DNA from: a virus
UHGV virus genome: UHGV-0207246
Reading direction: 5' to 3' (one strand)
DNA: 44,163 nt
A program made the translations under genes and the position numbers. Positions 6,656-43,939 of this stretch are shown here, piece by piece. Under the pieces are notes generated by a model. The model saw nothing but the letters and a program-made list of their open reading frames with translations. It made no database searches and had not been told where the DNA came from. Each line of letters begins with the position of its first letter. The first letter of the stretch is position 1.

Positions 6656-6679
6656 AAGGCCCCGAAAGGGGCCTTTTCT
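6656..6679. terminator. bidirectional rho-independent terminator
   Basis: AAGGCCCC-GAAA-GGGGCCTT flanked by A-run and T-run between convergent genes. Confidence 0.75.
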
Positions 6680-8428: not shown

Positions 8429-8456
8429 AATTATTTCCTCAGTAGGTTACAGGTGA

Positions 8457-8485
8457 ATAGTACCCTATTATATTGGGGTGTGCAA
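8457..8485 (-). promoter_or_regulatory. class I early-type promoter (TTGCAC-17-TACTAT) for the minus-strand island
   Basis: Reverse complement TTGCACACCCCAATATAATAGGGTACTATTCACC matches the 30384-30412 promoter at about 32 of 35 positions; contains AATAG-N4-CTATT inverted repeat. Confidence 0.6.
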
Positions 8486-18476: not shown

Positions 18477-18500
18477 AAAAGGCCCCAAACGGGGCCTTTT
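18477..18500. terminator. bidirectional rho-independent terminator
   Basis: AAAAGGCCCC-AAAC-GGGGCCTTTT between convergent modules. Confidence 0.75.
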
Positions 18501-18502
18501 CT

Positions 18503-18640
18503 CTACTCTTCTGATAACTTCTCAAGTACAAACGCCAGTTGCGCATTAGCGGCGTCTCTTTGCTGGCGTAGTCGTAGAACCTCCTCCTCGAGTTCCTTGA
18601 TACGTTTTTGCAATGCTGGAATCGGGGCTATGATGTTCAT
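18503..18640 (-). CDS. hypothetical small coiled-coil protein (45 aa)
   Basis: ATGA overlap with helicase stop; hand-translated MNIIAPIPALQKRIKELEEEVLRLRQQRDAANAQLAFVLEKLSEE. Confidence 0.3.
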   Translation of the reverse strand: MNIIAPIPALQKRIKELEEEVLRLRQQRDAANAQLAFVLEKLSEE

Positions 18641-20061
18641 TTCTTACCTCGTCTCTTCATGTAATTAAGCAACTCTTCCTGCACCGATTTCTTCTCGTCA
18701 GTACGCGCGGCAACAACCTCATCAAGCGTGTCTTTAGCAACGATATGATAGAGGAACACCGGGCGCTCGTGGCCCGCCTGTTTCTGGCGGACCGGGCCAA
18801 TACGCTCGACAACCTGCAAATAGTGCTCAAGGTTCCAGCCTTGCGAAATAAACGCCAGATGATGTCCGCCGTCCTGCAAATTCAAACCATGCCCCGCTGA
18901 CGCGGGGTGCACGCATAAGATTTCGATTTCGCCACGGTTCCACGCTTCCATCTGCTTATTGCCCTTAACACCTTTGGCGAACGCCTGCGCCTGCGGGAAC
19001 CGCTTAAGGATACGTTCCAGTTCGTGCTTGAACTGATAAGCCACAAGCAGCGGCGCACCCTGTAACTCCTCAACAATCGACTCGAGCGCATCCAGTTTCG
19101 TGTCGTGCACTCTCTCCCAGTCTTTGGTTGCTTCGCCATCCGGCCCGGACACATATACGGCACCGGATGCAATCTGCAGGCACTTCGACGTCTTCGCCGC
19201 CGCGTTAGCCGCTTCAACTTCCCCGCTCTCCAGTTCCGCAAATAATTTTTCCTCCATATCAATGTACGCCTGACGCGCCTTCTTCGGCAGGTCGATTTCA
19301 ACCGGTACAATAATCGGCGCTTCACAACCAAACCACTCGGCGGCGTCAATCGTAAGGCTGATGTCTTTCATCTTCTGATGAATCTCGTTATCAGCCCCCG
19401 GGCGTGCGTGATATTCACGGGCCATAGCTGATTTGCCTTTCTGCACCGAGTTAAACCAGCGGTCGGTGAATGCCGTGTACGATGAGCCGAGGCGCTCGCC
19501 TGCGTCGATAAACCAGTTCTGCCCCCACAGGTCTTTGAGGCCGTTTGGTGATGGTGTGCCGGTGAGGTTAATAAAACGCTTAACCTTACCGAACGCCACT
19601 TTACTAAGCGCCTTTGCTCGCTTGCTGCCACCAGAACGGCTACGGAACGATTTCAGCTTCGTGCTTTCATCGGCAACGATAACCGTAAAAGGCCAGTCGT
19701 CTTTGCCGTAGTAGTCAATCAGCCACTCGATAACTTCGTAGTTCGTGCACACCACATTAGCGTCAGACTCCAGCGCCGCGATGCGGCGCTTCTCCGAACC
19801 CGTTGCATCGACGACACGCAGACACGGGAAACCCCACTTAGTTTGTTCTGCGGGCCACGTACCTGACGCAACACGTAAAGGGGCGAGGATTAACACGCGG
19901 TCCTCTTCCGTAAGCTGCCCGTTGCGGAACAGGCGGTTTAATGCCCACAGTACGCTGCCAGTCTTCCCGGCACCCATGCTCGCCCATATGTTGCAGCGAT
20001 GGTGTTGCAACATGAACGAAGTCATGAGCTTCTGATATTCGCGCCTTTGAAACTTACTCAT
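18637..20061 (-). CDS. SNF2/DEAD-box family DNA helicase
   Basis: Walker A GAGKTG and DExx-like box ADESTKLK; 474 aa. Confidence 0.7.
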   Translation of the reverse strand: MSKFQRREYQKLMTSFMLQHHRCNIWASMGAGKTGSVLWALNRLFRNGQLTEEDRVLILAPLRVASGTWPAEQTKWGFPCLRVVDATGSEKRRIAALESDANVVCTNYEVIEWLIDYYGKDDWPFTVIVADESTKLKSFRSRSGGSKRAKALSKVAFGKVKRFINLTGTPSPNGLKDLWGQNWFIDAGERLGSSYTAFTDRWFNSVQKGKSAMAREYHARPGADNEIHQKMKDISLTIDAAEWFGCEAPIIVPVEIDLPKKARQAYIDMEEKLFAELESGEVEAANAAAKTSKCLQIASGAVYVSGPDGEATKDWERVHDTKLDALESIVEELQGAPLLVAYQFKHELERILKRFPQAQAFAKGVKGNKQMEAWNRGEIEILCVHPASAGHGLNLQDGGHHLAFISQGWNLEHYLQVVERIGPVRQKQAGHERPVFLYHIVAKDTLDEVVAARTDEKKSVQEELLNYMKRRGKK

Positions 20062-20249
20062 TTTGCCACCAGAACTAACTCTTTACGCCCGAACGCTGTA
20101 ACATTGCCTGTTACATCTTCGATAACCAGTTTACCGTTTGACTCGACGAACACCGTATCAACGGCAACAGGCTGGCGGGTCTTAACGTTGAAAATCATGT
20201 CGCCAGGTACGATGTCACGTGCTGGTTTACGGTCATATTCGTATTTCAT
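20058..20249 (-). CDS. hypothetical protein
   Basis: ORF track; ATGA-coupled to helicase; first gene after class II promoter. Confidence 0.4.
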   Translation of the reverse strand: MKYEYDRKPARDIVPGDMIFNVKTRQPVAVDTVFVESNGKLVIEDVTGNVTAFGRKELVLVAK

Positions 20250-20279
20250 CTATCAATTCCTTATATTGTTGGTGTAGGG

Positions 20280-20564
20280 CTAACTATAATAGTTCGCTAT
20301 TAGGTCGTCAACCTGTTTGAACGACCCGACGACAAAAACATTCGCACCACGTTTACGCATCCGCTCATGCTCTCGTAACTGGTGTGGGTCAGGCTTCGTG
20401 CTTTCGTCTTTCTTCACCTCGACGAACCAGACGATGCCGCCCGGGAGAATTACCAGCAGGTCGGGAGCGCCGGAGCGCCCCTCATAAGACAGTTTACGGA
20501 CGAGGCCCCCGATGGCCTCGAATCGCTCTTTTGCGTATTTCTGTATTTTTCCTTCCGGGGTCAT
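20280..20564 (-). CDS. VRR-NUC domain nuclease (PD-(D/E)XK)
   Basis: Motif GAPDLLVILPGGIVWFVEVKK; start set at ATG (track begins at upstream TTG). Confidence 0.55.
   Translation of the reverse strand: MTPEGKIQKYAKERFEAIGGLVRKLSYEGRSGAPDLLVILPGGIVWFVEVKKDESTKPDPHQLREHERMRKRGANVFVVGSFKQVDDLIANYYS
20283..20311 (-). promoter_or_regulatory. class II promoter (TTGACG-17-TATAGT)
   Basis: Reverse complement TTGACGACCTAATAGCGAACTATTATAGT; near-identical spacer to promoters at 24601 and 26753; lies within 3' end of upstream CDS. Confidence 0.6.
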
Positions 20565-20713
20565 GAGCGCAGAACCCAAGTTATAAATGCCCCGCCCAGA
20601 ACGGCAACGCCAACAAACTTAAAGAACAGGCCGTAACAGAACATCGCAGCTATTCCCGCGCCGAGTAACAGTGCGAGCATGGTTACTATGGTCCAAAATA
20701 CAAACTTTGTCAT
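20561..20713 (-). CDS. small membrane protein (50 aa, two hydrophobic segments)
   Basis: RBS GAGGGG; ATGA overlap with VRR-NUC start; hand-translated MTKFVFWTIVTMLALLLGAGIAAMFCYGLFFKFVGVAVLGGAFITWVLRS. Confidence 0.4.
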   Translation of the reverse strand: MTKFVFWTIVTMLALLLGAGIAAMFCYGLFFKFVGVAVLGGAFITWVLRS

Positions 20714-20795
20714 AATACACACCCCTCACGTTTCGTATGTTCAGTACCGCAGCGCGGACAGATTCGACAGTCTTCTTCATAAAACCAGTAGATTT

Positions 20796-20927
20796 TCATT
20801 CCAGCACCCACAGATAAATTGCGATGAACATGCCCAATATGGCAACCATCATGCCGTATTGACCCTCGTGACAGTAGACACCGGCAGCAAATCCCGCCAG
20901 TACCGCGATAATCAGTTTACTTGGCAT
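20796..20927 (-). CDS. small membrane protein (43 aa)
   Basis: RBS AAGGAG 9 nt upstream; hand-translated MPSKLIIAVLAGFAAGVYCHEGQYGMMVAILGMFIAIYLWVLE. Confidence 0.35.
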   Translation of the reverse strand: MPSKLIIAVLAGFAAGVYCHEGQYGMMVAILGMFIAIYLWVLE

Positions 20928-21612
20928 CTCTACATTCTCCTTCAGGCCACCTATTAGGAAAAGACGGTATATGTGAAACTTCTCTCGCCGCTTTTATTCT
21001 TTTAATGGCGGGACCTATCTCCGTGACCATTTCAATGAATGTAAACCGGTGTCCTCTGGTAAGATTACATGTCTGACAACAAGAAACGCAGTTAGATACT
21101 ATGTGCCCGCTTGTATTATCTATGCGGTCTACCCCGACTTTTGTAGTGCTTCCGCAATAATGGCATGGCTGTGATATTAGTTTAATAACGCTTTCCAGTG
21201 TTAAATCGCAGATAAGCCCTTTTCCTGAATCTGCTCTTTTGTATCCTAACAAAAGCGCGTACGCCCGCGTCCTTTGGTCCTTATTCACCAGTTCCCTGCG
21301 TTGCTTGTTGAGACACTCCCGGCAATCTTTCCTGATATGAGAGCCATTACTTTTATTTCCTTTCCTGAAGTTTTCCTCTGTTAAAGGTTTTACCTCCCCA
21401 CACTTTCTGCATTTAACAGGCTTCCCAGTGAAAACATACCAAGGGCTTTCTCGTCTGGATTTACCTTGTAATTTAAGTTTTTCGTCATACTTTTCCTTCC
21501 TGTTAGCATTTACACACTCTTTACACCAGCGTTGCAGCCCGAGGCGCGTTGACTTTGAAAAATACTCTGTAGTCGCCGGTTTATCTTCGCCGCATCTTGA
21601 ACACTTTTTCAT
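20917..21612 (-). CDS. HNH homing endonuclease with two N-terminal Cys4 zinc-ribbon repeats
   Basis: Repeats CSRCGEDKP...CKEC and CRKCGEVKP...CREC then HNH core CHYCG...DRIDNTSGH...CN; start at ATG with RBS GGAG. Confidence 0.7.
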   Translation of the reverse strand: MKKCSRCGEDKPATTEYFSKSTRLGLQRWCKECVNANRKEKYDEKLKLQGKSRRESPWYVFTGKPVKCRKCGEVKPLTEENFRKGNKSNGSHIRKDCRECLNKQRRELVNKDQRTRAYALLLGYKRADSGKGLICDLTLESVIKLISQPCHYCGSTTKVGVDRIDNTSGHIVSNCVSCCQTCNLTRGHRFTFIEMVTEIGPAIKRIKAAREVSHIPSFPNRWPEGECRDAK

Positions 21613-21623
21613 TAATAACTCCA

Positions 21624-21658
21624 AAAAAAAATACCGACATAGCCATTATATCGGTATT
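21624..21658 (-). terminator. rho-independent terminator downstream of DNA polymerase
   Basis: On minus strand ATACCGA-loop-TCGGTAT followed by T9. Confidence 0.5.
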
Positions 21659-21672
21659 TACATTTTCTACAA
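21645..21672 (-). promoter_or_regulatory. candidate promoter for HNH gene (TTGTAG-16-TATAAT)
   Basis: Perfect TATAAT on minus strand located in the loop of the terminator hairpin. Confidence 0.35.
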
Positions 21673-21689
21673 CGTATTTCCTAAATCTA

Positions 21690-23861
21690 CTACTTGGCGT
21701 ATCTGTACATTTCGCTACCTTCTGCTACAAGAGGGAACCCCTCCGCCCATTCCGGCAATTCGCACATCAACCGCTCAAGCTCTGCTACATTGTATTCCGG
21801 TGAATCTGGTGTCTCGCAGATAATCTCATCGTGTACGTGAAGTACAATCGGGTAGCCGTTTGCTTCTACGTTCAGCAGGGCATTAGCCAGCAAATCACGG
21901 CACAATGCCTGAGTGCAGTTTTCCACCAGTTTACCCGAGTAGGTGTACTGGAACCCCCACTGACGGGTTAGCTGATTTTCGCCCTGGTACTTAATGCGCA
22001 CGTTAGTAGACACTTTTCCATCTTCGTCTGTTTCTTTCGACACGCTCAACCCGACGCCTGGATAAGACATAACGCGACCAGACGGCAACGTCATGCGCAG
22101 CCACCAACCGGCGACTTTGTTGCCGTTGTTATCTGTCTCCACGTTGCGCGAAAACTTAACGCCACGCGGCCCTGCGGTGAACTCTTTACCTGGGTTGCGG
22201 ATAGCCGCCATAGCCGCGTCTTCAATATCGCGCCAGAATTGGACTATTGCAGGATTAGCTTCCCGGTACATGCGCTTTAAAGCGTCACAGGTGCGCCAAA
22301 CTTTCTTATCAAGGATATATGAGGGTCGGTCATCTTTTTCACCAGGACGTGGTGGTCGCTTGGCTTCCTGAATACGCGCCCATTCGTATCCGCGTGCGGT
22401 AGCGGCCCAAATATGGTCCGGGAATGTACCGTCTAAAGTGTTAGTCATGTCATTCAAATCAAGACCTAAGTTTTTAGCAAACGTGACGAAAGCACCGACG
22501 CCCCCCGCGTAGCCGAGTCCCAGAACCATTGCTTTGGCTATTTGTCTTTGGTCCTTTGTTACGGCTTCATATGCAACATTGAACACCGTTGATGCGAGTT
22601 TCTTATACACATCAACCCCGTTTACAAATACTTCGATTAAATCGTCTTCACCCGCCAGCCACGCAAGCCCGCGACCCTCAACGTTAGAGTAATCGGCGAC
22701 GACAAACTTATGCCCTGCTTCCGGTATGATGCAACTGCGAACCGTCGATGCCGTTAGCTTGGCTACGTCAAATCGGCGGTGCGCACGGCCCTTAAGTAAC
22801 GCAGAAATGCCTTTATCCAGTTCATCATCATGATAGTACCCGCGCGCCAGGTTCTGCGGCTGGAAGCCTTTACCGGCAAATCGTAATGTACGCTTAGCTC
22901 CACCATACTGTATGCAACCGCGTCGGCGGTCGTCCGAAGAGCGGCCCAGCAGCAGCGGGGTATATTTCGTTGACGCTGTTGACGCGGCCCCGAGGCGCAT
23001 TTCGATAATCATCCGGGCGTCGTCCGGTAAATCATCATCTGCCAACAGGTCGTTAAGCGTCGACTTCTGTGCATTGTGTATGCGGTGCGCGGGCGAAAGT
23101 TCACGCAGAATCGGAAGGAAGTCTTTACCGGTAAGCGAGCCGCCATATTTACGTTGAGCTTCTTCCTGTAACTGTGCCTTGTGCTTCTCTACGGCTTCAA
23201 TCGCGGCTTCCGCCAGTGCGACGTCAACCTTAAATCCGCGGTCGTTGATTAACTGGTCAAGTTCCAGTACACGGTCTTCGAACTCGGAGTTACCCCAACG
23301 CGGCAGCTTATGGAAGACTTCACGCATCGCAGTGATGTCGCTCACGGCGTACTTGATGAACAGCGCCCACTCATCCGGGTGCGTTTCAGCAGTGTAGCGG
23401 CGGATTTTGTAGTTCTTCGGTGTCGGTTTAGAAAAACGCTGAATAAGCGCTTTGCCTCGTTTGTCTTTCGCGTTGTCTGCGGACACGCCAAGCACTTCAC
23501 ACAGCGCATCAAGAGAACCCGGCAGCGCGTGACGAAACGCCCAAATCATCGTATCGATAGTGTTGCTTACCGGAATATCAAAGCCCCAGCAATGCTTCAT
23601 GACGAGCCTGTCGAACATTGAGCCATTGTGCCACACCATCTTAATGCGACTGTTTGGCTTAACCAGACGGCGCAGTGCGCGGTGCAAATCCCCCGGCATG
23701 TCGCTGCCGTCTGTGCAATCCCATACCTGTACAGGCTCGTCATCAAAAGCATAGGTACAGATAAGCACTTCGGTAGTCGGGTGTTCGGCGTAAGCATAGG
23801 AGCCGAATTTCTTTAAATCGGCTTCGGAGAATGTTTCAAAGTCTAAGAACAGGTAACTCAT
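21690..23861 (-). CDS. family A DNA polymerase with 3'-5' exonuclease domain
   Basis: Exo I FLDFETFS; Pol motif A DYSNVEGR, motif B RQIAKAMVLGLGYAGG, motif C LHVHDEI. Confidence 0.85.
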   Translation of the reverse strand: MSYLFLDFETFSEADLKKFGSYAYAEHPTTEVLICTYAFDDEPVQVWDCTDGSDMPGDLHRALRRLVKPNSRIKMVWHNGSMFDRLVMKHCWGFDIPVSNTIDTMIWAFRHALPGSLDALCEVLGVSADNAKDKRGKALIQRFSKPTPKNYKIRRYTAETHPDEWALFIKYAVSDITAMREVFHKLPRWGNSEFEDRVLELDQLINDRGFKVDVALAEAAIEAVEKHKAQLQEEAQRKYGGSLTGKDFLPILRELSPAHRIHNAQKSTLNDLLADDDLPDDARMIIEMRLGAASTASTKYTPLLLGRSSDDRRRGCIQYGGAKRTLRFAGKGFQPQNLARGYYHDDELDKGISALLKGRAHRRFDVAKLTASTVRSCIIPEAGHKFVVADYSNVEGRGLAWLAGEDDLIEVFVNGVDVYKKLASTVFNVAYEAVTKDQRQIAKAMVLGLGYAGGVGAFVTFAKNLGLDLNDMTNTLDGTFPDHIWAATARGYEWARIQEAKRPPRPGEKDDRPSYILDKKVWRTCDALKRMYREANPAIVQFWRDIEDAAMAAIRNPGKEFTAGPRGVKFSRNVETDNNGNKVAGWWLRMTLPSGRVMSYPGVGLSVSKETDEDGKVSTNVRIKYQGENQLTRQWGFQYTYSGKLVENCTQALCRDLLANALLNVEANGYPIVLHVHDEIICETPDSPEYNVAELERLMCELPEWAEGFPLVAEGSEMYRYAK

Positions 23862-23878
23862 TATTTTCGACCCTTAGT

Positions 23879-23901
23879 AAAAAGGCCCAATGAAGGGCCT
23901 T
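23879..23901 (-). terminator. rho-independent terminator
   Basis: AAGGCCC-TTCATT-GGGCCTT then T5 on minus strand. Confidence 0.55.
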
Positions 23902-23920
23902 AGTTAAATTGATTCAGATA

Positions 23921-24547
23921 TTAGCGGCGACGACGCTCGCGGCGCGGTGCTTCATCTTCTTCGTCGTCTTCCAGGTCATTGACGCTTGCAGCGACTTTAG
24001 AACCGCCAAACGCTTTACCTTCACCAACGTATTTAATCGCCAGCAGGTTAACACCGAGGACTTTGTATTTCTGACTGAACCAGATTTCGACGCTTACGTT
24101 AGCAACGCAGCCGCTGTAAACCTGTTCGCCTTCAATCTGTTCACCGTCTACATTGAAGTCCTGTTCTACCTGAGTCTCACCTTTTTTAGAGGTTACAATC
24201 AGTGGCTGTTTCTGTGCCTTCGCTTTGAAGTAGAAGCCTTCCGGGAAGTCTTCAAACGGATTGTCGCGCTCGGCGATGTCTTTAATCGCGCATTTATCCA
24301 TGTGCTTACCTTCGCCGTAGTTGGACTTCATCCACTTCTCGGCGGCGGCTGCACCTAATGCTTCTTCAACTACAGCGTAGACTGTGTCGTAGAGCGCATC
24401 GATTTGCGCGTGGTCAGACGGCAGGATGATAGTTGCGCTATACTGACCTTTAGTGATTGAGCCATCATCGTTTTCACGGTCTTTTTCGCGTTCGAATACG
24501 TTAACCCAAGCAGTGTTTACTTTACGCAGATTTAATTTCAGTCCCAT
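23921..24547 (-). CDS. SSB-like protein (DUF2815-like) candidate
   Basis: Acidic C-terminal region; position between Cas4-like nuclease and PolA resembles the DUF2800-DUF2815-PolA arrangement (recalled, not searched). Confidence 0.4.
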   Translation of the reverse strand: MGLKLNLRKVNTAWVNVFEREKDRENDDGSITKGQYSATIILPSDHAQIDALYDTVYAVVEEALGAAAAEKWMKSNYGEGKHMDKCAIKDIAERDNPFEDFPEGFYFKAKAQKQPLIVTSKKGETQVEQDFNVDGEQIEGEQVYSGCVANVSVEIWFSQKYKVLGVNLLAIKYVGEGKAFGGSKVAASVNDLEDDEEDEAPRRERRRR

Positions 24548-24600
24548 CTTGATTTCTCGCTTTTAAGTTTACTCCGGGAACCGCCCGGCCAGTGATTAGA

Positions 24601-24629
24601 ACTATAATAGCTTACTATTCAGGTGTCAA
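24601..24629 (-). promoter_or_regulatory. class II promoter (TTGACA-17-TATAGT)
   Basis: Reverse complement TTGACACCTGAATAGTAAGCTATTATAGT. Confidence 0.65.
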
Positions 24630-24633
24630 CACT

Positions 24634-25908
24634 TTATTCTAAATCTTCTTCACTAACCTGATCCCACTCAGGACGTTTGTCGTCTGCCGTTGCGACACAT
24701 GGTGCGCCTGGCTTACGGGTAATAAAGTCTTTCAGTTCTTCTTCCGGTATAACTTTAACCGCTTCGGTGGGCGTCATGAGAACTACCTTTTGCAGCATAG
24801 TACCGTACTTCTCGAATACTGCATCGGTATCTTTCCACGCACGATTACCCGGGCGACCCTCAACCAGTTTGTACCCTGGAACTTTCTTACCGGAATGCAA
24901 CGCGGCAGCCATAGCTTTCTCAACCTTGTCGATGTGCTGGCGCAGCATCGGCAACTTCTCATACTCAGCTACGAGTTGCTCAGGAGTGAGTTCCAGCGCA
25001 AAGTCGTCCTCCAGTTCTTCCGCCAGTACGGAATTAACCGTCTTTGTACGCGCGGCGCATTGTTCCGAGAACCTACACCACTGACAACCATCGACCGACG
25101 GCCTGAAGTCCGACGCTTTCAGGTTCTTCTTACCGCGGAAATAAGCATCAAGCGCTAACAGCGCGCGTTTCTGTGCGAACTTAGCGAACAGTTCCAGACC
25201 TTCAACCGAGATGTCCCACTCCGACGCACCGCCCGCGTATGGCTGGAAGATGACCAGACGAACCACGGTGATGTTATAACGTCTCTTGAGTCGGCGATAA
25301 ACACCAAGAGCGTAAAGCATAAGCTGTTTGTTTTCTTTCGCTTCGACGCGATGCCGTCCTGTTTTCAGGTCTGTGATATTAAGTATAAATTCGTCTGTAT
25401 TTGCTTTTTCTAGCACGGCAACAAGGTCAGCGGTTCCGAACGTCTCTAAATCATCCTCCTCGCCTTCTTCACCATCAGCGGGTACTTTGTAGCCAGGATG
25501 TAGCACCTGAGTAAGATTTACGCGCATCTCGAGCTTGGCATAAGTCGCTACGTCGATAATCGCTTTGCAGTAGTCGGTGTACTTGCGCACCTGCTCAATC
25601 ATGTCCGCCGTAATCAGTACCGCGCCTTTCATAGGACTGATTAGCGCCTTAATCTGGCCTTTACCCTCATCCAGCACGTAAGCACCTACTTCGCGCTCTA
25701 ACGGCAACGCAGTGCCTTTGATGTACTGGTTTAAGTGCATCTCAGCTATGGTGTGCATAGCCGTTCCTAATACGGCGGCTTTACCTGACGTGTTAGGAAT
25801 ATCTTTTTCACAGGCCAGTGATGCACTGCACGCCAGCCACTTTTTAGCACCAGACGGCGACAGTAAGGCGTGCACATCGTTATTGCCGCCGCGTTCCTTT
25901 AAAATCAT
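24634..25908 (-). CDS. PD-(D/E)XK nuclease, Cas4/RecB-like (DUF2800-like) with C-terminal Cys cluster
   Basis: Motifs ITDLKTG, QLMLYA, C-terminal CQWCRFSEQC; start at ATG with RBS GGGAGAG, ATGA-coupled to upstream gene. Confidence 0.6.
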   Translation of the reverse strand: MILKERGGNNDVHALLSPSGAKKWLACSASLACEKDIPNTSGKAAVLGTAMHTIAEMHLNQYIKGTALPLEREVGAYVLDEGKGQIKALISPMKGAVLITADMIEQVRKYTDYCKAIIDVATYAKLEMRVNLTQVLHPGYKVPADGEEGEEDDLETFGTADLVAVLEKANTDEFILNITDLKTGRHRVEAKENKQLMLYALGVYRRLKRRYNITVVRLVIFQPYAGGASEWDISVEGLELFAKFAQKRALLALDAYFRGKKNLKASDFRPSVDGCQWCRFSEQCAARTKTVNSVLAEELEDDFALELTPEQLVAEYEKLPMLRQHIDKVEKAMAAALHSGKKVPGYKLVEGRPGNRAWKDTDAVFEKYGTMLQKVVLMTPTEAVKVIPEEELKDFITRKPGAPCVATADDKRPEWDQVSEEDLE

Positions 25909-26177
25909 ACCCTGCTCTCCCACTGGTCAATTAAATGTCGTGTCTTATGGTCGCAGTGCATAGCCCACCCATACATCGACTCGAAGACATAAAAGTCAGG
26001 TTTGGCGAAAGTCGTGCGCTTAATATGTGACACGTGGCGGCCTATGTCTTTAGGCCGTGGCACTTTGCCTAAGTACGCCATCTCTTCCATCTGGTGCGCA
26101 CCGGACGGCGCACGCAACAGCCATAGCGCATCTGTGTTATCCCGCCTGTCAACGGCGCGGTAGAGTTGGTAAATCAT
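25905..26177 (-). CDS. hypothetical protein
   Basis: ORF track; ATGA coupling. Confidence 0.4.
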   Translation of the reverse strand: MIYQLYRAVDRRDNTDALWLLRAPSGAHQMEEMAYLGKVPRPKDIGRHVSHIKRTTFAKPDFYVFESMYGWAMHCDHKTRHLIDQWESRV

Positions 26178-26220
26178 AATTCCGACCCTCAGTTAAAGCG
26201 GCCTGAAGGCCGCCAGATAA

Positions 26221-26721
26221 TTATTCTTCTTCGAAATACTTGTTCTTGATCGCCGTCAGGCGTTCCAGGTACTCTGCCAGGTCTTCATCTTTAATCGCGG
26301 CAATCTTCATCTTCTTACCGGTGAACTCTTCCAGCAGTTCGTCAGAATCGTCGCACGCGGCATCGCTTGGACCTTCGTTAATCGCATCGTCGATAGCCTG
26401 AATCTGGTCCCGAAGAGACTGGTAATCGACTTCTTCTTTCTCTTCTTCCGGCTCTGGCGTAGGCTCCTCTGCTTTAGCTTTACGCGGCTTGCGTTTAGGC
26501 TTCTCGTCTTCCGCCGGTTTAGTGTCGACGATGTTTTCACCTTCGACCGGGATTTCTTTTGTTGCTTCTTCGGTGCACTCGGCTACCGCTTCTTTGGCAT
26601 ACACTACCGTCTCTACTTCCAGCGGCGCGGCAACCTGAACAACCTGTTTCACACTGTTCGCAGCAATCAGTTCATGCGCAACTACGAAACGTTCCAGTAA
26701 TTTCAGAAATTGTTCTAACAT
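26221..26721 (-). CDS. highly acidic protein (candidate DNA mimic / host takeover factor)
   Basis: First gene after strong class II promoter, RBS GAGGAGAG; E/D-rich with KPKRKPRKAKAEE linker. Confidence 0.5.
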   Translation of the reverse strand: MLEQFLKLLERFVVAHELIAANSVKQVVQVAAPLEVETVVYAKEAVAECTEEATKEIPVEGENIVDTKPAEDEKPKRKPRKAKAEEPTPEPEEEKEEVDYQSLRDQIQAIDDAINEGPSDAACDDSDELLEEFTGKKMKIAAIKDEDLAEYLERLTAIKNKYFEEE

Positions 26722-26752
26722 TTGTTTCTCTCCTCTCGTTTGGTATGGGCTA

Positions 26753-26781
26753 ACTATAATAGCGAACTATTCACATGTCAA
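26753..26781 (-). promoter_or_regulatory. class II promoter (TTGACA-17-TATAGT)
   Basis: Perfect -35, 17 bp spacer TGTGAATAGTTCGCTAT, -10 TATAGT, about 30 nt upstream of ATG. Confidence 0.7.
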
Positions 26782-26845
26782 TGGGTTTTTCTAAAATAAT
26801 TAATATGGTACTATTCGCATATCAACTAACTAAGGAGTAATTGAT

Positions 26846-27061
26846 ATGCAACCCTCTGAACTAGGCATCCGTGTAGAACAACGCCGCAAAGAACTCGGCA
26901 TCTCCCAGCGCCGTCTGGCTGTCCTGGCTGGCGTTTCACAGGGCGCGATTAACCAGCTGGCACTTGGGGTAACTCAGGACGTCCGCCCGGCAACGCTGTT
27001 TAAACTGGCGGAAGTGCTGGAAGTAGACGCCAAGTGGCTGGCGTTCGGTGAAGGGGCTTAA
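26846..27061 (+). CDS. XRE-family helix-turn-helix transcriptional regulator (Cro/CI-like)
   Basis: HTH ISQRRLAVLAGVSQGAINQLALG; RBS TAAGGAG; isolated plus-strand gene with its own terminator. Confidence 0.7.
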   Translation: MQPSELGIRVEQRRKELGISQRRLAVLAGVSQGAINQLALGVTQDVRPATLFKLAEVLEVDAKWLAFGEGA

Positions 27062-27078
27062 AGCCCCTTTCTTTTTTA
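27052..27078 (+). terminator. rho-independent terminator
   Basis: GGGGC-TTAAA-GCCCC followed by TTTCTTTTTT. Confidence 0.7.
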
Positions 27079-27079
27079 C

Positions 27080-29299
27080 CTATTCCAAATCCTCTTCTGT
27101 CACTACCAGCATTTCATTCGGTTCGTATATTGTCTTCGGTCTTAGTCTATCCCCTATTCTTTCAGGTATACGATACGTTCTCGGTACTACTTCGCCATTA
27201 GCATCACAGCCTAGCATTAGTTCACCATCTTTCAGCATTTTATCAAGATGGGTGTTAGTCACAGAAAAGTCACCGGAACGGGCAACTATCTGCTGCTGAG
27301 TAAAACCGCGACCTGTGTCATCTGACTGTTGCAGGTCTTCCAGTGCCGAAAGTATTGACTCCTTCCTTACTTCATCCTTCCCACGTTTTACGGCATTCTT
27401 TACGTTTTCTTTACCTTCCTTTGCCAGCCCTTCTTCGCGCTCTTTCTCCTCGTCGGTTTTGAACGGCTCGAAGCCCCACGGCATCAGCACAAGTGCCTTA
27501 TGCGGCTCAGGAAGGTCCAGGTTTACGATTGTGCCGTATTCTTCTGTGCTACCCAGGAACTCAACAGCACGGTATTCTTTCGGCGGCGGGGCTTCACGGA
27601 ACTGTACAGACTCAAGCACCATGCCGACGGTTTTCTGTTGAGGCCCGTGCTTAAATTTCGAGTGGTATACGTTTATCTGGCGGTCGGTAGCGCGTTCGAT
27701 TGTCAGCTCGACGTCGACACCTGCATACAGTGCCCCGCTGCCACGGGCTTTCTTTCCACCCTTCGGCGTATGGTGGACAACGCCCACCGCGGCTTTAGTC
27801 GCATCACGTACTTCTTTCAGGATGGCGATAACTTTACCCATACCGATTGCCGTGGACGAACTGTTCTCGTCGAACTTATCAATCGTCAGGGCTAGCGTCT
27901 GGTTAAGGGTATCAAACGCGACCACCCCAATTGGCTCATCGCCAGCAGTTTCACGCATTAACTTAATCAGGCTTTTCAGTTTTCCGACTTCGCCCATATC
28001 GATAACATGTACATAATCTTTACCTTCCTCGCCATATTTAGCCGCTAGCGCATCAATACGTGTACGTGTAGCTGCACCGCCTTCGCCATCGATATAGAAA
28101 TGGTGGCAACGCTGGGTATCCGCCCCTGCAAACCGGTATCCGGCGGCGCTCAGGTACATCATCCCCAGCGTATAGAATGATTTGTACGTACCAGATTCAC
28201 CGACAATATCCCATATGCAATCTGACGGCATGTACCCCTCAACGACGAAATCAGCCTTTACCGGTTCCGGTAGCTCGTCCTCTTCTGAGCCCTCGTCTTC
28301 CAGGTCGTCGAGGCTGCAAGTTACTGGATCCTCGTTCTCTGTGCGGTGTAGTTCTTCAATCTCTTCTTCCGGTAAATCAGGTAGAGCCGCACGAATGCTG
28401 TTAATGCTGATAGGTTGCTTATCTACGTTAAGCTCGTCGGGTAGGCCACACATACGCAGGGCCAAATGCTGCCTACGGTTAAGCTCGGTGCAAGCGCCGT
28501 TGTTTGTATGCTGGCAGACAAAGCGAACTTCTTTACCGTCGAGCATGATGCTGGTGGAGCCCTTGCCTGTATGCAGATGTTCGTTAGGGCATGGCACTTC
28601 GTACCCGCGACCAGAAGATAAGACGTCAAGGCCAAGCTCGGCTTCGCAGAAATGCGCTATATCTGCGTTAAGCCCATGCTCATCGGCGGCAAGTGTCTTA
28701 GCTTCGCGTTTACGCAACCCCATCTCTTCGGCTTTCTTGATGTACCGCTCGGCACGGATAACACGCCCTTCTGTAACCGTTATCTTCGACTCTCTATGTG
28801 GCAGGTAGATGAGGCGGTTGCCATCTTCCGTGCAGTGGTCGCGCAATGCTTCGTCTATTTCTAACTCTGCACAAATAGCCCGTTGAACCATCCACGCGTC
28901 GTTAGAGTTAAACGGCGTGCGAGCCGGTACGAGAACGCGGAAGGCGTAATCACCGTTTTTACACGCATGTTGATGCGATGCCGTTGTGTGCAGAATATTG
29001 AAGAACGGTGCGATCTTGAATTTGCGGGTAAGGTCGCGGTACTGAGTACGGTTTAGATGGTCGAAGTCGAACTTAACCACACTGTCTTCCAGAATAGCGT
29101 TTTTACGGCGGCCACCAACAGGCGCAATAGCTTTCTGTTTAATCTTGGCAGCGTCGTACTCTTCTTTAGTCCATGACGGGTCCACGGACAAACGCTTTGA
29201 TGTATCACAGACATACTCTACGAACTGCTCCAGCGGCATTTCACGCGCTACAGGGTTTTTATCGAATGTGTTACGCAGCGTTGCAAAAACAATATTCAT
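27080..29299 (-). CDS. DNA primase/helicase (primase-polymerase-like N-terminus, RecA/DnaB-like ATPase C-terminus)
   Basis: N-terminal DFDHL; Walker A-like GESGTYKS and Walker B-like IGVVAFDTL. Confidence 0.65.
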   Translation of the reverse strand: MNIVFATLRNTFDKNPVAREMPLEQFVEYVCDTSKRLSVDPSWTKEEYDAAKIKQKAIAPVGGRRKNAILEDSVVKFDFDHLNRTQYRDLTRKFKIAPFFNILHTTASHQHACKNGDYAFRVLVPARTPFNSNDAWMVQRAICAELEIDEALRDHCTEDGNRLIYLPHRESKITVTEGRVIRAERYIKKAEEMGLRKREAKTLAADEHGLNADIAHFCEAELGLDVLSSGRGYEVPCPNEHLHTGKGSTSIMLDGKEVRFVCQHTNNGACTELNRRQHLALRMCGLPDELNVDKQPISINSIRAALPDLPEEEIEELHRTENEDPVTCSLDDLEDEGSEEDELPEPVKADFVVEGYMPSDCIWDIVGESGTYKSFYTLGMMYLSAAGYRFAGADTQRCHHFYIDGEGGAATRTRIDALAAKYGEEGKDYVHVIDMGEVGKLKSLIKLMRETAGDEPIGVVAFDTLNQTLALTIDKFDENSSSTAIGMGKVIAILKEVRDATKAAVGVVHHTPKGGKKARGSGALYAGVDVELTIERATDRQINVYHSKFKHGPQQKTVGMVLESVQFREAPPPKEYRAVEFLGSTEEYGTIVNLDLPEPHKALVLMPWGFEPFKTDEEKEREEGLAKEGKENVKNAVKRGKDEVRKESILSALEDLQQSDDTGRGFTQQQIVARSGDFSVTNTHLDKMLKDGELMLGCDANGEVVPRTYRIPERIGDRLRPKTIYEPNEMLVVTEEDLE

Positions 29300-29424
29300 T
29301 TCTTTTTCTCCGCACGTTCTAAGGCTTCCTGCATACGGCGCATTGCGCGGTTCATCTTTACCGGTGCGAAGAAATCAGCGCCGTGTTTCTGGCGGCGTAG
29401 CTGTGGAACTATCAACTTTGTCAT
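29296..29424 (-). CDS. hypothetical small basic protein (42 aa)
   Basis: RBS AAGGA; ATGA overlap with primase start; hand-translated MTKLIVPQLRRQKHGADFFAPVKMNRAMRRMQEALERAEKKK. Confidence 0.3.
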   Translation of the reverse strand: MTKLIVPQLRRQKHGADFFAPVKMNRAMRRMQEALERAEKKK

Positions 29425-29493
29425 TGTATAATCCTTGTGCTTACTTTGATGATTTGTACTTTAACCCCGACGTTCTGGCGTTGGGGTTTCTTT

Positions 29494-29784
29494 TCACCGT
29501 TTAGCCAACTCTTCCAGCAAATTTTTATACTCTTCAAAATATTCCTCGACCAAATCGTCGCCGAAATAGAAGTCGATATACTCGATATTATCTCCTACGT
29601 TAAGCGATGCCGACATGGTGCTTAGTTGGCGTAAGCTAATTAGCTTCATTTCTGTTTCTACGCAGAAAGGCCGGTAGGTATCAAGGTGACAAGAGATATT
29701 GAAACATAAGGCGAACTCTCCCGCCACGGTGTGGACCATATACACTTCGTTTTCTGCTTTATTGTGGAAAATTACACCTTTCAT
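29494..29784 (-). CDS. hypothetical protein
   Basis: ORF track; ATGA-coupled downstream of HTH gene. Confidence 0.4.
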   Translation of the reverse strand: MKGVIFHNKAENEVYMVHTVAGEFALCFNISCHLDTYRPFCVETEMKLISLRQLSTMSASLNVGDNIEYIDFYFGDDLVEEYFEEYKNLLEELAKR

Positions 29785-29963
29785 TTCACGTTCTCCTTAA
29801 TCCACGCTTCAACTTTATTTCGATCAAATGTACCGGGTAAACGGCGACCCATAACCTTAATACAACAATCCGGGAATTTACCACTGCGCAACCAGTTATT
29901 AATTGTCTGACGTGTTACCCCGATACGTTCGGCGACTTCATTCTGTGTCATGTAATGCTGCAT
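29781..29963 (-). CDS. small HTH DNA-binding protein (AlpA/excisionase-like fold)
   Basis: MTQNEVAERIGVTRQTINNWLRSGKFP; first gene of leftward operon. Confidence 0.55.
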   Translation of the reverse strand: MQHYMTQNEVAERIGVTRQTINNWLRSGKFPDCCIKVMGRRLPGTFDRNKVEAWIKENVK

Positions 29964-29995
29964 TTTTTATATCTCCTGTTTGTTTAGTGAAACCG

Positions 29996-30024
29996 AGTAT
30001 AGGATAGCGGGAATGTAAAAGCAA
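29996..30024 (-). promoter_or_regulatory. leftward promoter (TTGCTT-17-TATACT)
   Basis: Minus strand TTGCTTTTACATTCCCGCTATCCTATACT, about 35 nt upstream of ATG with RBS AGGAGA. Confidence 0.55.
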
Positions 30025-30061
30025 CCAATCCCTGCAATATTTAATCTTTACAAAAAAGTTA

Positions 30062-30091
30062 TTGAAAGTTCTTGACTCATGTTTGTATAAT
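30062..30091 (+). promoter_or_regulatory. rightward promoter (TTGAAA-18-TATAAT) of a non-coding unit
   Basis: Perfect -10 TATAAT, -35 TTGAAA with 18 bp spacer; no ORF before the terminator at 30291. Confidence 0.55.
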
Positions 30092-30118
30092 GGTTTTGGG
30101 ACTTGTATGTATTACGGA

Positions 30119-30150
30119 GTTGACGAACCCTCCCCGAGGGATTCGTCAAC
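30119..30150. repeat. 32-bp near-perfect palindrome GTTGACGAACCCTCCCCGAGGGATTCGTCAAC
   Basis: Outer arms GTTGACGAA/TTCGTCAAC and inner arms CCCTC/GAGGG. Confidence 0.8.
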
Positions 30151-30290
30151 CCCTCCCAGACAGCTGAGATGCTTGCCTTGGGGTTTAAGGATAAGTGTAT
30201 CTAAATCTCATTTAAAGAAGTAACCAGCTGAAATATCTACTGTTTCTTCCTATGCCGTAGATTCGCAACCGTAAAAATGTAACGATTATT

Positions 30291-30318
30291 GGGCAGGCTT
30301 AAGGCCTGCCCTTTAGTT
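30291..30318 (+). terminator. rho-independent terminator
   Basis: GGGCAGGC-TTAAG-GCCTGCCC followed by TTTAGTT. Confidence 0.6.
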
Positions 30319-30383
30319 ACCAAGTAATAAGAATAAAGGCACAACCTTCCCCGAAGAATCACAACGGCAACGTAACTATTCTC

Positions 30384-30412
30384 TTGCGCACCCCAACATA
30401 ATAGGATACTAT
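30384..30412 (+). promoter_or_regulatory. class I early-type promoter (TTGCGC-17-TACTAT)
   Basis: TTGCGCACCCCAACATAATAGGATACTAT; conserved leader to RBS GAGGAG. Confidence 0.6.
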
Positions 30413-30445
30413 TCACTTATCGAAACGAGACAGAGGAGTGGGGTT

Positions 30446-30643
30446 ATGTTTAAGAAGGGTCAGTTGGCTAGGGATATAGGTACAGGGCTTTTAGTTCAGG
30501 TTGTCAGCGAGCCTATTAATATTGAATCTGAATTTAAAGGATTCTTGCCTGTTAAAACTGTTACAGGTTCATGGATAGCGTATCGCAAGCCATCCGATTT
30601 AGAACTCATCGGCAACAATTTTAAATTCAAAGGGGCGAAGTGA
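30446..30643 (+). CDS. hypothetical early protein
   Basis: ORF track; RBS GAGGAG. Confidence 0.45.
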   Translation: MFKKGQLARDIGTGLLVQVVSEPINIESEFKGFLPVKTVTGSWIAYRKPSDLELIGNNFKFKGAK

Positions 30644-30882
30644 TGGAAGAATTAATTTGTGTGAAAAGTAAATTAGCTGAGTTCAAGCCGGGAAGTTCAT
30701 ATGTCGGCTATTCAACACCTGATTACGATTATGTAATAGATGAAACAGGAAGCGAATGGGTAGTTGACCAGTTCGGGGACGACGAATTCGGGGTGTTCGA
30801 TGGTGGACTGAAAGCTTCATTCACAACGGCATCGAATCATGATGCTCGCGCCGACGACTCTGAGGGAGGTTGCCGTGAATAA
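30640..30882 (+). CDS. hypothetical acidic early protein
   Basis: ORF track; ATGA coupling. Confidence 0.45.
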   Translation: MMEELICVKSKLAEFKPGSSYVGYSTPDYDYVIDETGSEWVVDQFGDDEFGVFDGGLKASFTTASNHDARADDSEGGCRE

Positions 30883-30942
30883 TTACCCGTTCATTTTAAT
30901 CATCAGCTCCGTTTATGTGGTGCACGCGCTGTGGGGTTTGGT

Positions 30943-31143
30943 GTGAGCAAGTGGGTTAAGTGTAGTGAGCGGATGCCGTGCTGCGAGCCGGGTAGGTGGT
31001 CAAAAGATGTTATTGCACTAAGTGATACCGGGGATGTGTTCCGTCTAGCCTGTCAAGGTGAATACTGGCAAAGAACGTCAGCATTCGTTGAATCCGGTTC
31101 CGAAAAAGTGGTTGCATGGATGCCGTTTCCCGAGGAGGACTAA
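30943..31143 (+). CDS. DUF551-like protein (paralog 1)
   Basis: (M)SKWVKCSERMP...VVAWMPFPEED parallels paralog MSKWIKCSEQMP...THWRKLPKPP; GTG start inferred from paralog alignment. Confidence 0.5.
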   Translation: MSKWVKCSERMPCCEPGRWSKDVIALSDTGDVFRLACQGEYWQRTSAFVESGSEKVVAWMPFPEED

Positions 31144-31146
31144 GTT

Positions 31147-31290
31147 ATGAGAGAAGCATTCGAACGGTGGGCTGTCGTCGAGGGTCTGCCGGTTAACAAA
31201 GGTTCAAAGAAAGAGTACCTGAACGTTAAGACGCGTCTAGCGTGGCGGGCGTGGAAAGCTGGTGTGCAAGCTGTGATGAATACGAGGTGA
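31147..31290 (+). CDS. hypothetical small protein (47 aa)
   Basis: Strong RBS GAGGAGGA; hand-translated MREAFERWAVVEGLPVNKGSKKEYLNVKTRLAWRAWKAGVQAVMNTR. Confidence 0.4.
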   Translation: MREAFERWAVVEGLPVNKGSKKEYLNVKTRLAWRAWKAGVQAVMNTR

Positions 31291-31293
31291 GAT

Positions 31294-31494
31294 ATGAGTA
31301 AGTGGATTAAGTGCAGTGAGCAGATGCCCGCTCCTTTCTCTCATGTACTTGTGACTGATGGGGGAGAGGTTGAGATTAAATGGTTCGATGATGATTCGGA
31401 TGAGTGGGATAGTTGGGATGAATTCAACTCTGTCATAGACAACGAGGATATAACGCACTGGAGGAAATTGCCTAAACCGCCGAAACTGGTGTAA
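31294..31494 (+). CDS. DUF551-like protein (paralog 2)
   Basis: ORF track; RBS GAGGTGAG; C-terminal W..LP.PP motif. Confidence 0.5.
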   Translation: MSKWIKCSEQMPAPFSHVLVTDGGEVEIKWFDDDSDEWDSWDEFNSVIDNEDITHWRKLPKPPKLV

Positions 31495-31629
31495 CAGGTC
31501 AATAGGTTACTATTTGACTGAGTGACTTACGCTGCTACACAGCAGCGTACAACTTTAGATTAGTGTCGTCAAAAAGCGACACTTTCACCGAACGCAACAA
31601 TAGAAGCGATTATTGCAGGAGATGCAACA

Positions 31630-31807: not shown

Positions 31808-31836
31808 TTGCACACTAAGATAGAATAGGCTACTAT
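31808..31836 (+). promoter_or_regulatory. class I-type promoter variant (TTGCAC-17-TACTAT)
   Basis: TTGCACACTAAGATAGAATAGGCTACTAT; downstream leader ACAAACGAGAGGAGAG parallels the 30413-30445 leader. Confidence 0.55.
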
Positions 31837-31867
31837 TCATTTACACAAACGAGAGGAGAGACGGAAG

Positions 31868-35445: not shown

Positions 35446-35466
35446 TCTGTTTTCTGTAATGACTAG

Positions 35467-35495
35467 TTGACTATTACCTTAGACCCTATTATATT
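35467..35495 (+). promoter_or_regulatory. promoter (TTGACT-17-TATATT)
   Basis: TTGACTATTACCTTAGACCCTATTATATT; shares the CCCTATTATATT core with class I elements. Confidence 0.55.
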
Positions 35496-40493: not shown

Positions 40494-40518
40494 AAAAAGG
40501 CCCCTTTCGGGGCCTTAG
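40494..40518. terminator. bidirectional rho-independent terminator
   Basis: AAAAAGGCCCC-TTTC-GGGGCCTT then AGTTTTATT. Confidence 0.7.
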
Positions 40519-40733: not shown

Positions 40734-40766
40734 CTTTAAATCCCTTATCTCTCGTTTCGATAGCTG

Positions 40767-40795
40767 AATAGTACCCTATTATATTGGTGTCTGCA
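40767..40795 (-). promoter_or_regulatory. class I early-type promoter (TTGCAG-17-TACTAT)
   Basis: Reverse complement TTGCAGACACCAATATAATAGGGTACTAT; same region may carry a rightward TCGATA-17-TATATT promoter. Confidence 0.55.
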
Positions 40796-40840
40796 AATAT
40801 TATTTTTATGCGTTACACTGGCGATACTACAGGAGGGCAT

Positions 40841-43240: not shown

Positions 43241-43272
43241 AAAAGGCCCCGTATGGGGCCCTAGTTTTATTT
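43241..43272. terminator. bidirectional rho-independent terminator
   Basis: AAAAGGCCCC-GTAT-GGGGCC then AGTTTTATTT. Confidence 0.65.
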
Positions 43273-43788: not shown

Positions 43789-43815
43789 TTTTCATCTCCT
43801 GTTTAAATTAACTGA

Positions 43816-43844
43816 ATAGTACCCTGTTATGTTGGTGTGCGCAA
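43816..43844 (-). promoter_or_regulatory. class I early-type promoter (TTGCGC-17-TACTAT)
   Basis: Reverse complement TTGCGCACACCAACATAACAGGGTACTAT. Confidence 0.55.
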
Positions 43845-43898: not shown

Positions 43899-43912
43899 CT
43901 ATTCGAATAGTT
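43899..43912. repeat. perfect 14-bp palindrome ACTATTCGAATAGT abutting a -35 element
   Basis: Uses the same CTATT/AATAG pentamer found in the promoter families. Confidence 0.7.
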
Positions 43913-43939
43913 GACTTTTCACTAAAAATATGATAAGCT
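43911..43939 (+). promoter_or_regulatory. rightward promoter (TTGACT-17-TAAGCT with TGn extended -10)
   Basis: TTGACTTTTCACTAAAAATATGATAAGCT. Confidence 0.45.

Follow-up and report, generated by a model that had tools for sequence, protein, structure and literature searches.

The 434 operators OR and OL are 14-bp sites of the form ACAA-N6-TTGT, and 434-type dimers canonically recognise a 14-bp dyad whose outer bases are conserved. On a wider scale, P1 C1, gp71 of mycobacteriophage L5 with its 'stoperators' and N15 CB use many dispersed copies of one short site, located on or just downstream of promoters. Here we compare with these systems a small gene of the virus genome UHGV-0207246, a stretch of 44,163 bases that was analysed as a whole and is referred to below as the window. 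The gene (26846-27061) encodes a 71-amino-acid (aa) helix-turn-helix (HTH) protein resembling Cro of phage 434, and the palindrome AATAG-N4-CTATT recurs at promoters of the window. We propose that the gene is probably an autoregulated orphan Cro that represses the early and replication promoters of a strictly lytic phage, and that about ten phage promoters, its own included, are most likely turned down via this shared 14-bp palindrome. Both the binding of the dyads by the Cro-like protein and the repression by this binding are what we infer from the genome sequence.

A 2-kb query around the Cro-like gene matched 446 phage records, headed by Escherichia phage vB_EcoS_HSE2 (96.7% identity) and next by many Kagunavirus (Guernseyvirinae) isolates at ~91% identity. 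The window derives from an E. coli phage of the genus Kagunavirus, subfamily Guernseyvirinae, and as the genomes of its relatives measure 41-45 kb, it is about one genome long. Kagunavirus-type phages have been described as strictly lytic small siphoviruses (PMC9825357, PMC9787291, PMC11990801), and the BASEL paper counts Kagunavirus among the phage groups that 'remained largely understudied' (PMC11990801). Our literature search found no functional study of the Cro-like gene and no transcriptomics for Guernseyvirinae, nor an account of the transcription programme of Kagunavirus and Jerseyvirus phages; the Golestan paper does not discuss the gene. The gene and the motif have each been noted earlier, separately, the former in GenBank labels and the latter in the fBC-Eco01 paper (PMC9825357), while the link between the two, the AATAG and AATAC variants and the synteny history set out below are new proposals of this analysis.

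The gene itself is as follows:

26846..27061, plus strand: Cro-like HTH gene, ATG start, 71 aa, single-domain HTH_3

The preliminary description of this stretch had read an XRE-family HTH protein of Cro-like type at this position, and both labels hold. Pfam HTH_3 matched residues 11-65 with 47.2 bits (cutoff 23, E 2.3e-12), HTH_19 and HTH_31 also passed, and the protein matched PHROG families of the type 'transcriptional regulator/repressor'. Its best sequence match in the PDB is phage 434 Cro, which is also 71 aa long and aligns end to end (E 5e-7), followed by the N-terminal domain of the 434 repressor and by P22 C2. The AlphaFold2 model (predicted local distance difference test 79.8) contains five helices (5-17, 21-28, 32-39, 48-57 and 62-66), the second and third of which make up the HTH. 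In a Foldseek search this model matched P22 C2 and, with probability 1.00 and template modelling (TM) scores of 0.72-0.76, SinR, 434 Cro and the 434 repressor, 434 Cro being 38-41% identical. The recognition helix spans approximately residues 31-39 (SQGAINQLA), and the glutamine that opens it in 434 Cro is kept, Q32 of the window protein being the counterpart of Q28. With 71 aa the protein has the size of a single-domain Cro of ~70 aa, and it carries neither a C-terminal oligomerisation domain nor an S24 peptidase domain. Judging from the sequence matches and the model, 'Cro-like' is a fair structural description.

Furthermore, we found the gene to be under strong purifying selection. Across 31 distinct Kagunavirus alleles, synonymous polymorphism (pS) is 0.22 and nonsynonymous polymorphism (pN) 0.012, giving a pN/pS of ~0.05; nearly all codons of the recognition helix vary synonymously, with G33S as the sole amino-acid variant. 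In GenBank the orthologue is labelled variously as 'transcriptional repressor', 'CRO', 'XRE family regulator', 'HTH protein' or 'DNA-binding protein'. The search for relatives turned up roughly 560 Guernseyvirinae genomes; the nearest relatives beyond the subfamily are Cro/CI proteins of temperate enterobacterial phages (for example Sf101 Cro, phiP27 and Stx1 phage CI), and a word-indexed homologue search returned only relatives of at least 78% identity, all on phage-sized contigs. The idea that the gene sits in a hypervariable cassette resembling an immunity region was dropped, as the identity profile against the Jerseyvirus Ent1 reflects general mosaicism without an island of divergence at the gene.

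Two other groups of small HTH regulators were considered. Further Foldseek matches were C.AhdI and CapH-N, and the C proteins of restriction-modification systems (C.AhdI, C.BclI) share size and fold class with the window protein (TM 0.71-0.72) and act as autoregulatory dimers on palindromic boxes over their own promoter, as is proposed here. However, they are 21-28% identical to it, their operators differ in sequence and layout, and the window has no restriction-modification genes adjacent to the gene; a controller protein was therefore rejected, the neighbours being a 166-aa protein and a primase-helicase and the gene being monocistronic with its own terminator. The XRE antitoxins HipB, HigA and MqsA gave weak matches through the HTH_3 fold. 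An antitoxin of a type II toxin-antitoxin system was likewise rejected, because the terminator lies directly past the stop codon and there is no same-strand neighbour and no co-transcribed toxin.

The expression signals and the two palindromes next to the gene are:

26832..26837, plus strand: Shine-Dalgarno sequence AAGGAG, 8 nt ahead of the ATG, kept in Kaguna-, Jersey- and Cornellvirus
27050..27077, plus strand: intrinsic terminator, hairpin 27050-27070 of 8-9 bp, GC-rich, followed by the T-tract TTTCTTTTTT
26806..26814, plus strand: likely own promoter of the Cro-like gene, extended -10 TGgTACTAT without a good -35
26770-26797, plus strand: alternative candidate promoter TTCACA-16-TAAAAT
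26753..26781, minus strand: leftward promoter TTGACA-17-TATAGT, 11/12, driving the operon that runs leftward from 26721
26758..26771, no strand: O1 AATAGCGAACTATT, perfect AATAG-CGAA-CTATT at -25..-12 of the leftward promoter, filling its spacer
26802..26815, no strand: O2 AATATGGTACTATT, one-mismatch AATAT-GGTA-CTATT over the -10 of the Cro-like gene, putative autoregulatory site

The strong ribosome-binding site, the separate intrinsic terminator and the divergent promoter/operator at 26753-26781 that had been ascribed to this locus are thus all present, the last with O1 inside its spacer. The terminator hairpin contains the stop codon of the Cro-like gene, has a predicted energy of -15.2 kcal/mol and is also annotated in relatives. 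As no U-tract follows the hairpin on the minus strand, the terminator looks unidirectional and leftward transcription should pass. The leftward operon encodes the 166-aa protein, a 90-aa protein and a PD-(D/E)XK nuclease. At the position of the likely own promoter, Jerseyvirus has TTGCGT-17-TACTAT, and O2 shows the geometry of class B as defined below, without a -35.

In the leader, a 12-nt inverted repeat GCATATCAACTA / TAATTGATATGC (26817-26849) brackets the Shine-Dalgarno sequence and takes in the start codon. The resulting hairpin, which pairs perfectly in the window (-12.2 kcal/mol, z -1.6), could mask the ATG; it was rejected as a regulatory element, since most other Kagunaviruses have it mismatched or weaker and a transcript from the likely start site would contain only part of it.

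Next we examined the palindrome across the window. The preliminary description had pointed to AATAG-N4-CTATT sites, and these proved real: the exact motif is present 8 times, where base composition predicts 0.04 occurrences, and allowing up to one mismatch raises the count to 15, where 1.1 would be expected and none of 100 shuffles got as far. All of these copies are situated at intergenic promoters or at the ends of genes; of the 8 exact ones, seven are intergenic, and the one at 20288 falls within the final codons of a gene and at the same time within a promoter. Besides O1 and O2, the following sites, all palindromic and given without strand, were recorded:

8456..8469: palindrome common to the face-to-face promoters TTGCAC-17-TACTAT (minus strand) and GTTACA-17-TATATT (plus strand)
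20288..20301: palindrome in the spacer of the minus-strand promoter TTGACG-17-TATAGT, before a 63-aa gene and the helicase gene
24606..24619: palindrome in the spacer of the minus-strand promoter TTGACA-17-TATAGT, before the genes for single-stranded DNA-binding protein and DNA polymerase
30400..30413: palindrome at -19..-6 of the plus-strand promoter TTGCGC-17-TACTAT, before the first small rightward gene at 30446
31501..31514: exact palindrome, intergenic, with a weak promoter assignment
31824..31837: palindrome at -19..-6 of the plus-strand promoter TTTGCA/TGCACA ... TACTAT, before the gene at 31868
35462..35475: one-mismatch ACTAG-TTGA-CTATT over the -35 of TTGACT-17-TATATT (35467-35495), upstream of small genes and the terminase operon
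40767..40780: palindrome common to face-to-face promoters, of TACTAT type on the minus strand and TCGATA-17-TATATT on the plus strand
43815..43828: one-mismatch palindrome in the minus-strand promoter TTGCGC...TACTAT, before the gene that runs leftward from 43788
43906..43919: one-mismatch AATAG-TTGA-CTTTT over the -35-like hexamer TTGACT, close to the window's right end

The sites fall into three classes according to where the dyad lies relative to the -10, at -25..-12, -19..-6 or -40..-27. Class A (20288, 24606 and 26758, all on the minus strand) has the form TTGACA-N4-palindrome-ATAGT with the dyad at -25..-12, and its promoters drive the three leftward replication operons. In class B (8456 minus, 30400 plus, 31824 plus, 40767 minus and 43815 minus) the dyad occupies -19..-6 of TTGCRC-17-TACTAT promoters, which are followed by a short GAGGAG leader and then the gene start. 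The two class C sites (35462 and 43906, one mismatch each) place the dyad over a TTGACT -35 hexamer. At 8446-8485 and 40757-40800, overlapping face-to-face promoter pairs share a single AATAG-TACC-CTATT dyad, so that one bound dimer could shut both directions. With the same palindrome on some ten promoters genome-wide, the regulator appears to reach well beyond its own intergenic region.

This arrangement can be set against the known systems. As in 434, the putative operator spans 14 bp with dyad symmetry and is conserved in its outer bases but not in its centre, divergent promoters are overlapped by operators, and the gene's own promoter carries one; the protein likewise shares the length and five-helix HTH_3 fold of 434 Cro. 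Unlike 434, the phage lacks a cI partner, a tripartite OR, PRM and lysogeny, its operator arms read AATAG, and its operators lie over about ten promoters genome-wide rather than in two clusters; it is also a virulent Guernseyvirinae siphovirus and not a lambdoid phage. With P1 C1, L5 gp71 and N15 CB the window shares, on general knowledge, the principle of one small regulator and one short site scattered over the genome, but those proteins maintain lysogeny and have mostly asymmetric sites, whereas the window combines a lytic phage with dyad-symmetric sites and a regulator of Cro size. By analogy, the window protein functionally most resembles 434 Cro acting in lytic growth.

We propose the following mechanism. 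Host sigma-70 RNA polymerase would transcribe the gene from its weak extended -10 promoter into a monocistronic mRNA of ~250 nt that would end at the gene's own terminator. A dimer of the Cro-like protein would bind the 14-bp AATAG-N4-CTATT palindromes, whose length and dyad geometry are those of the 434 operators; since the palindromes overlap the spacer, the -10 or the -35 of promoters, a bound dimer would occlude RNA polymerase. At the perfect O1 it would shut the strong adjoining leftward replication promoter, at the imperfect O2 it would mediate negative autoregulation, and ~8 further sites would extend the regulon to another two replication promoters and to the promoters of the small early genes and of the minus-strand islands. 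The net effect would be a dampened or timed shut-off of early and replication transcription in lytic growth, which amounts to the lytic-cycle job of lambda or 434 Cro without a CI partner and without lysogeny.

Next, we asked whether the palindrome behaves as a protein-binding site among relatives. Upstream regions were compared for 34 Kagunavirus loci, of which IMG/VR supplied 33. Neither O1 nor O2 shows any change in its arms, for O1 across 27 distinct sequences. The centre varies (CGAA, CTAA, TGAA, CAAA and CGAG), and so does the flank towards the -35, including 1-bp indels. Five other orthologous sites follow the same pattern, with almost invariant arms and a variable N4 centre and -35-side flank. 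Furthermore, Pantoea phage AH01, an unclassified member of the Guernseyvirinae, carries 5 exact copies of AATAC-N4-GTATT, a ~150-fold enrichment that makes it the top palindrome of that genome apart from terminators. The AH01 sites lie on orthologous promoters, including both promoters flanking its Cro-like gene, and the recognition helix of its Cro-like protein reads TQGGIGHIV in place of SQGAINQLA. Because the arms have changed symmetrically at several AH01 promoters, the pattern fits co-evolution with a dimeric, phage-encoded reader.

These observations also bear on the one published reading of the motif. The fBC-Eco01 paper found tgAATAGTa-ccTATTat-T with PHIRE and read it as a 'phage RNA polymerase promoter' (PMC9825357). 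It could accordingly be argued that the palindrome is a mere promoter element, or simply results where divergent -10 boxes overlap, and has no dedicated reader, and the position of the right arm over the -10 at most sites and the service of dyads 8456 and 40767 to promoters on both strands agree with this. We regard this explanation as very unlikely, since no phage RNA polymerase is annotated in the relatives' genomes, the dyad occurs in at least three registers relative to the -10, the left arm, although it falls on spacer bases that are not recognised by sigma-70, stays invariant while the centre drifts, and in AH01 both arms are altered in concert. The dependence of the register on promoter type marks the dyad as a separate module and not a part of the promoter that is read by RNA polymerase; together these features argue that it is a protein-binding module rather than a promoter element, which would correct the published reading.

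If the dyad is bound by a protein, the question is by which. We hold it to be rather probable that the Cro-like protein reads it: two dyads flank its gene, one of them over its own -10. The window has two recognisable DNA-binding proteins, the Cro-like protein and the following:

29781..29963, minus strand: second small HTH protein, 60 aa, HTH_17, Xis/MerR-like, ~3 kb from the Cro-like gene

No other DNA-binding domain was found by Pfam in the 28 other small open reading frames (ORFs) scanned.

Several observations weigh against the Cro-like protein as the reader, or against the simple form of its proposed role. Kagunavirus and Jerseyvirus both use AATAG-N4-CTATT, yet their Cro-like proteins are 52% identical with different recognition helices (SQGAINQ versus SQSLITH), while their HTH_17 proteins are 82% identical. 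In Jerseyvirus the sites adjacent to the gene are degenerate (AATCG-N4-CTATT and ATTAC-N4-CTATT). The Cornellvirus VSiA has the Cro-like gene and no AATAG- or AATAC-type site at its promoters; a whole-genome repeat scan of VSiA (PHIRE-like, 16-mers with at most 3 mismatches) returned GC-rich coding noise only, and inspection of its upstream regions by eye gave no convincing common dyad. TS33 and phiEap-2 carry asymmetric hybrid sites only. In most promoters the right arm CTATT borders on the -10 or belongs to it, so its conservation could partly reflect promoter function. Finally, should all promoter classes carry the dyad, including those ahead of structural operons, differential affinity must be assumed and a simple early shut-off is not the obvious outcome.

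Part of this evidence would suit a different reader. Under this alternative the palindromes are read by the HTH_17 protein, by a phage protein that was not recognised as DNA-binding, such as the 166-aa neighbour, or by a host regulator, and the Cro-like protein autoregulates through another site or has its target outside the phage genome. The HTH_17 protein is found in exactly the two genera that share AATAG-N4-CTATT, Cornellvirus lacks it and the AATAG palindromes alike, and the 166-aa neighbour, an uncharacterised protein, occurs throughout the subfamily. On the other hand, HTH_17/Xis-type proteins usually bind direct repeats, whereas dimers of Cro/CI type classically target a 14-bp dyad. 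Near 30,000, two strong divergent promoters, among them that of the HTH_17 operon, lack the palindrome. The complete AH01, TS33 and VSiA genomes have no HTH_17 protein, yet AH01 possesses a full palindrome regulon in its AATAC-N4-GTATT form; a host factor would leave the symmetric G to C change in AH01 unexplained, and the 166-aa protein has no DNA-binding signature. We therefore consider another reader to be rather unlikely, although it is the most serious of the alternatives.

A second alternative holds that the protein acts mainly on other genomes, either in homotypic exclusion of superinfecting relatives ('immunity') or on prophage or host operators, with self-regulation being secondary. 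The operator type differs by genus (AATAG versus AATAC), like the immunity specificities of lambdoid phages, and, as stated above, the closest proteins outside the subfamily belong to temperate phages. Yet the sites lie on the phage's own core promoters, which makes self-regulation unavoidable if the protein binds them, and Kagunavirus and Jerseyvirus have different hosts with the same core operator. Such a primary role is, in our judgement, unlikely.

The orphan Cro reading can be extended, more tentatively, to the whole subfamily. One Cro-sized protein might be the master transcriptional regulator of these virulent phages, acting on nearly every promoter through one dyad in differing registers and setting up a temporal programme without a phage RNA polymerase, a sigma factor or CI, with a specificity that co-evolves with the full operator set. 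We regard this broader view as a possibility, and one more doubtful than the orphan Cro reading itself. If it is true, AATAG (Kagunavirus and Jerseyvirus) and AATAC (AH01) would define 'immunity-like' specificity groups among lytic phages, and such groups could also exclude superinfecting relatives.

The setting of the gene was examined in parallel. In the minus-strand block 18637-29963 (11.3 kb) the Cro-like gene is the sole credible plus-strand gene, both in a greedy ORF map and in the annotations of two relatives, in agreement with the earlier statement of a single plus-strand gene in an 11-kb minus-strand region. Its neighbours are:

26221..26721, minus strand: 166-aa divergent neighbour, PHROG 3127, function uncharacterised
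27080..29299, minus strand: primase-helicase, convergent with the Cro-like gene in the window

The order 166-aa gene, Cro-like gene, primase-helicase is kept in all 8 genomes compared. The description of the gene as 'lone' stands for Kagunavirus and Jerseyvirus and fails elsewhere: in six other Guernseyvirinae genomes (VSiA, AH01, TS33, phiEap-2, VLCpiS11a and Tsm2) the primase-helicase, 30-31% identical to that of the window, follows directly downstream on the same strand. There the Cro-like gene heads a rightward primase-helicase operon, divergent from the leftward replication operon. A primase-helicase on the opposite strand was found in Kagunavirus and Jerseyvirus only, where it is co-transcribed with the lineage-specific HTH_17 gene and a 96-aa gene. 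Neither of these two gave a tblastn match in three Cornellvirus loci and the AH01-type locus L049, and the HTH_17 gene was also not found in loci L085-L089. This distribution indicates an inversion or a module replacement in the Kagunavirus/Jerseyvirus lineage, as a consequence of which the Cro-like gene would have become isolated.

Beyond the HTH_17 gene, at 30062-30311 on the plus strand, lies the best sigma-70 match of that strand, TTGAAA-18-TATAAT (30062-30091, 11/12, without the palindrome), followed by ~200 nt without a convincing ORF and then by a strong terminator (30291-30311). The segment has no Rfam match, as was the case for the whole window in Rfam and tRNA scans, and it may encode a small non-coding RNA at the early divergent region. 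A replication origin at 26.8 kb was also considered and found no support, as the GC skew is flat there and turns at ~18.5 kb and 30 kb with the direction of transcription.

With this context, the remaining claim of the preliminary description, a Cro-type switch, can be weighed. It would mean a true bistable Cro/CI-type switch between lytic growth and a repressed (lysogenic or carrier) state, as might be expected from the resemblance to 434 Cro and from two operators between back-to-back promoters. A switch needs an opposing CI-type repressor, and none was found: no CI-like or S24-peptidase protein and no second Cro/CI-type HTH protein is present in the window, where small ORFs were scanned, or in annotated relatives. 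The divergent 166-aa gene was tried as a CI analogue and rejected, having no HTH, S24 or other Pfam domain and no PDB match. Of the context in which a lambdoid Cro is found, neither the divergent cI gene with shared operators nor the temperate phage is present. No integrase is present in the window or annotated in relatives, and the region was not found as a prophage in any of 5,426 complete E. coli genomes, in line with the publications on these phages (PMC9825357, PMC9787291) and with the earlier remark that the phage otherwise appears lytic, no integrase having been seen. In most of the subfamily, moreover, the gene merely heads the primase-helicase operon. The switch is therefore not supported, and we consider it extremely improbable.

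Kagunavirus and Jerseyvirus phages are under development for therapy, biocontrol and as synthetic-biology chassis, and the present analysis offers for them a concrete candidate regulon of ~ten promoters and one 71-aa protein. It also suggests that a 'Cro/repressor' annotation in these genomes need not mean a temperate phage, which bears on the safety assessment of therapeutic phages. If the binding is true, the protein and its dyad would constitute a repressor/operator pair that is both compact and orthogonal, and AH01 would supply a natural variant of its specificity.

Some further features of these genomes were noted. A recurrent terminator hairpin, AAGGCCCC-N4-GGGGCCTT, stands at convergent gene boundaries of the window (6656-6675, 18479-18498, 23882-23901, 40497-40516 and 43243-43262) and also occurs in VSiA and AH01. 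In Salmonella phage Ent1 (Jerseyvirus), inteins are annotated in the helicase and DNA polymerase genes (25253-27718 and 28312-31410); the window orthologues, of 474 aa and 723 aa, are intein-free by length.

Finally, the region around the Cro-like gene is targeted by a clustered regularly interspaced short palindromic repeats (CRISPR) array. E. coli 2017.09.02CC (NZ_AP025214.2) has a type I-E array beside iap, in which 3 of the 9 spacers read match within ~1 kb around the gene: at 27010-27041 in the Cro-like gene itself (0 mismatches), at 26778-26809 between O1 and O2 (1 mismatch) and at 26047-26078 in the 90-aa gene (2 mismatches). With 4 mismatches, one more spacer corresponds to window positions 36-67. 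By their sequence matches, the spacers show natural targeting of Kagunaviruses by CRISPR, and their clustering looks like primed adaptation.

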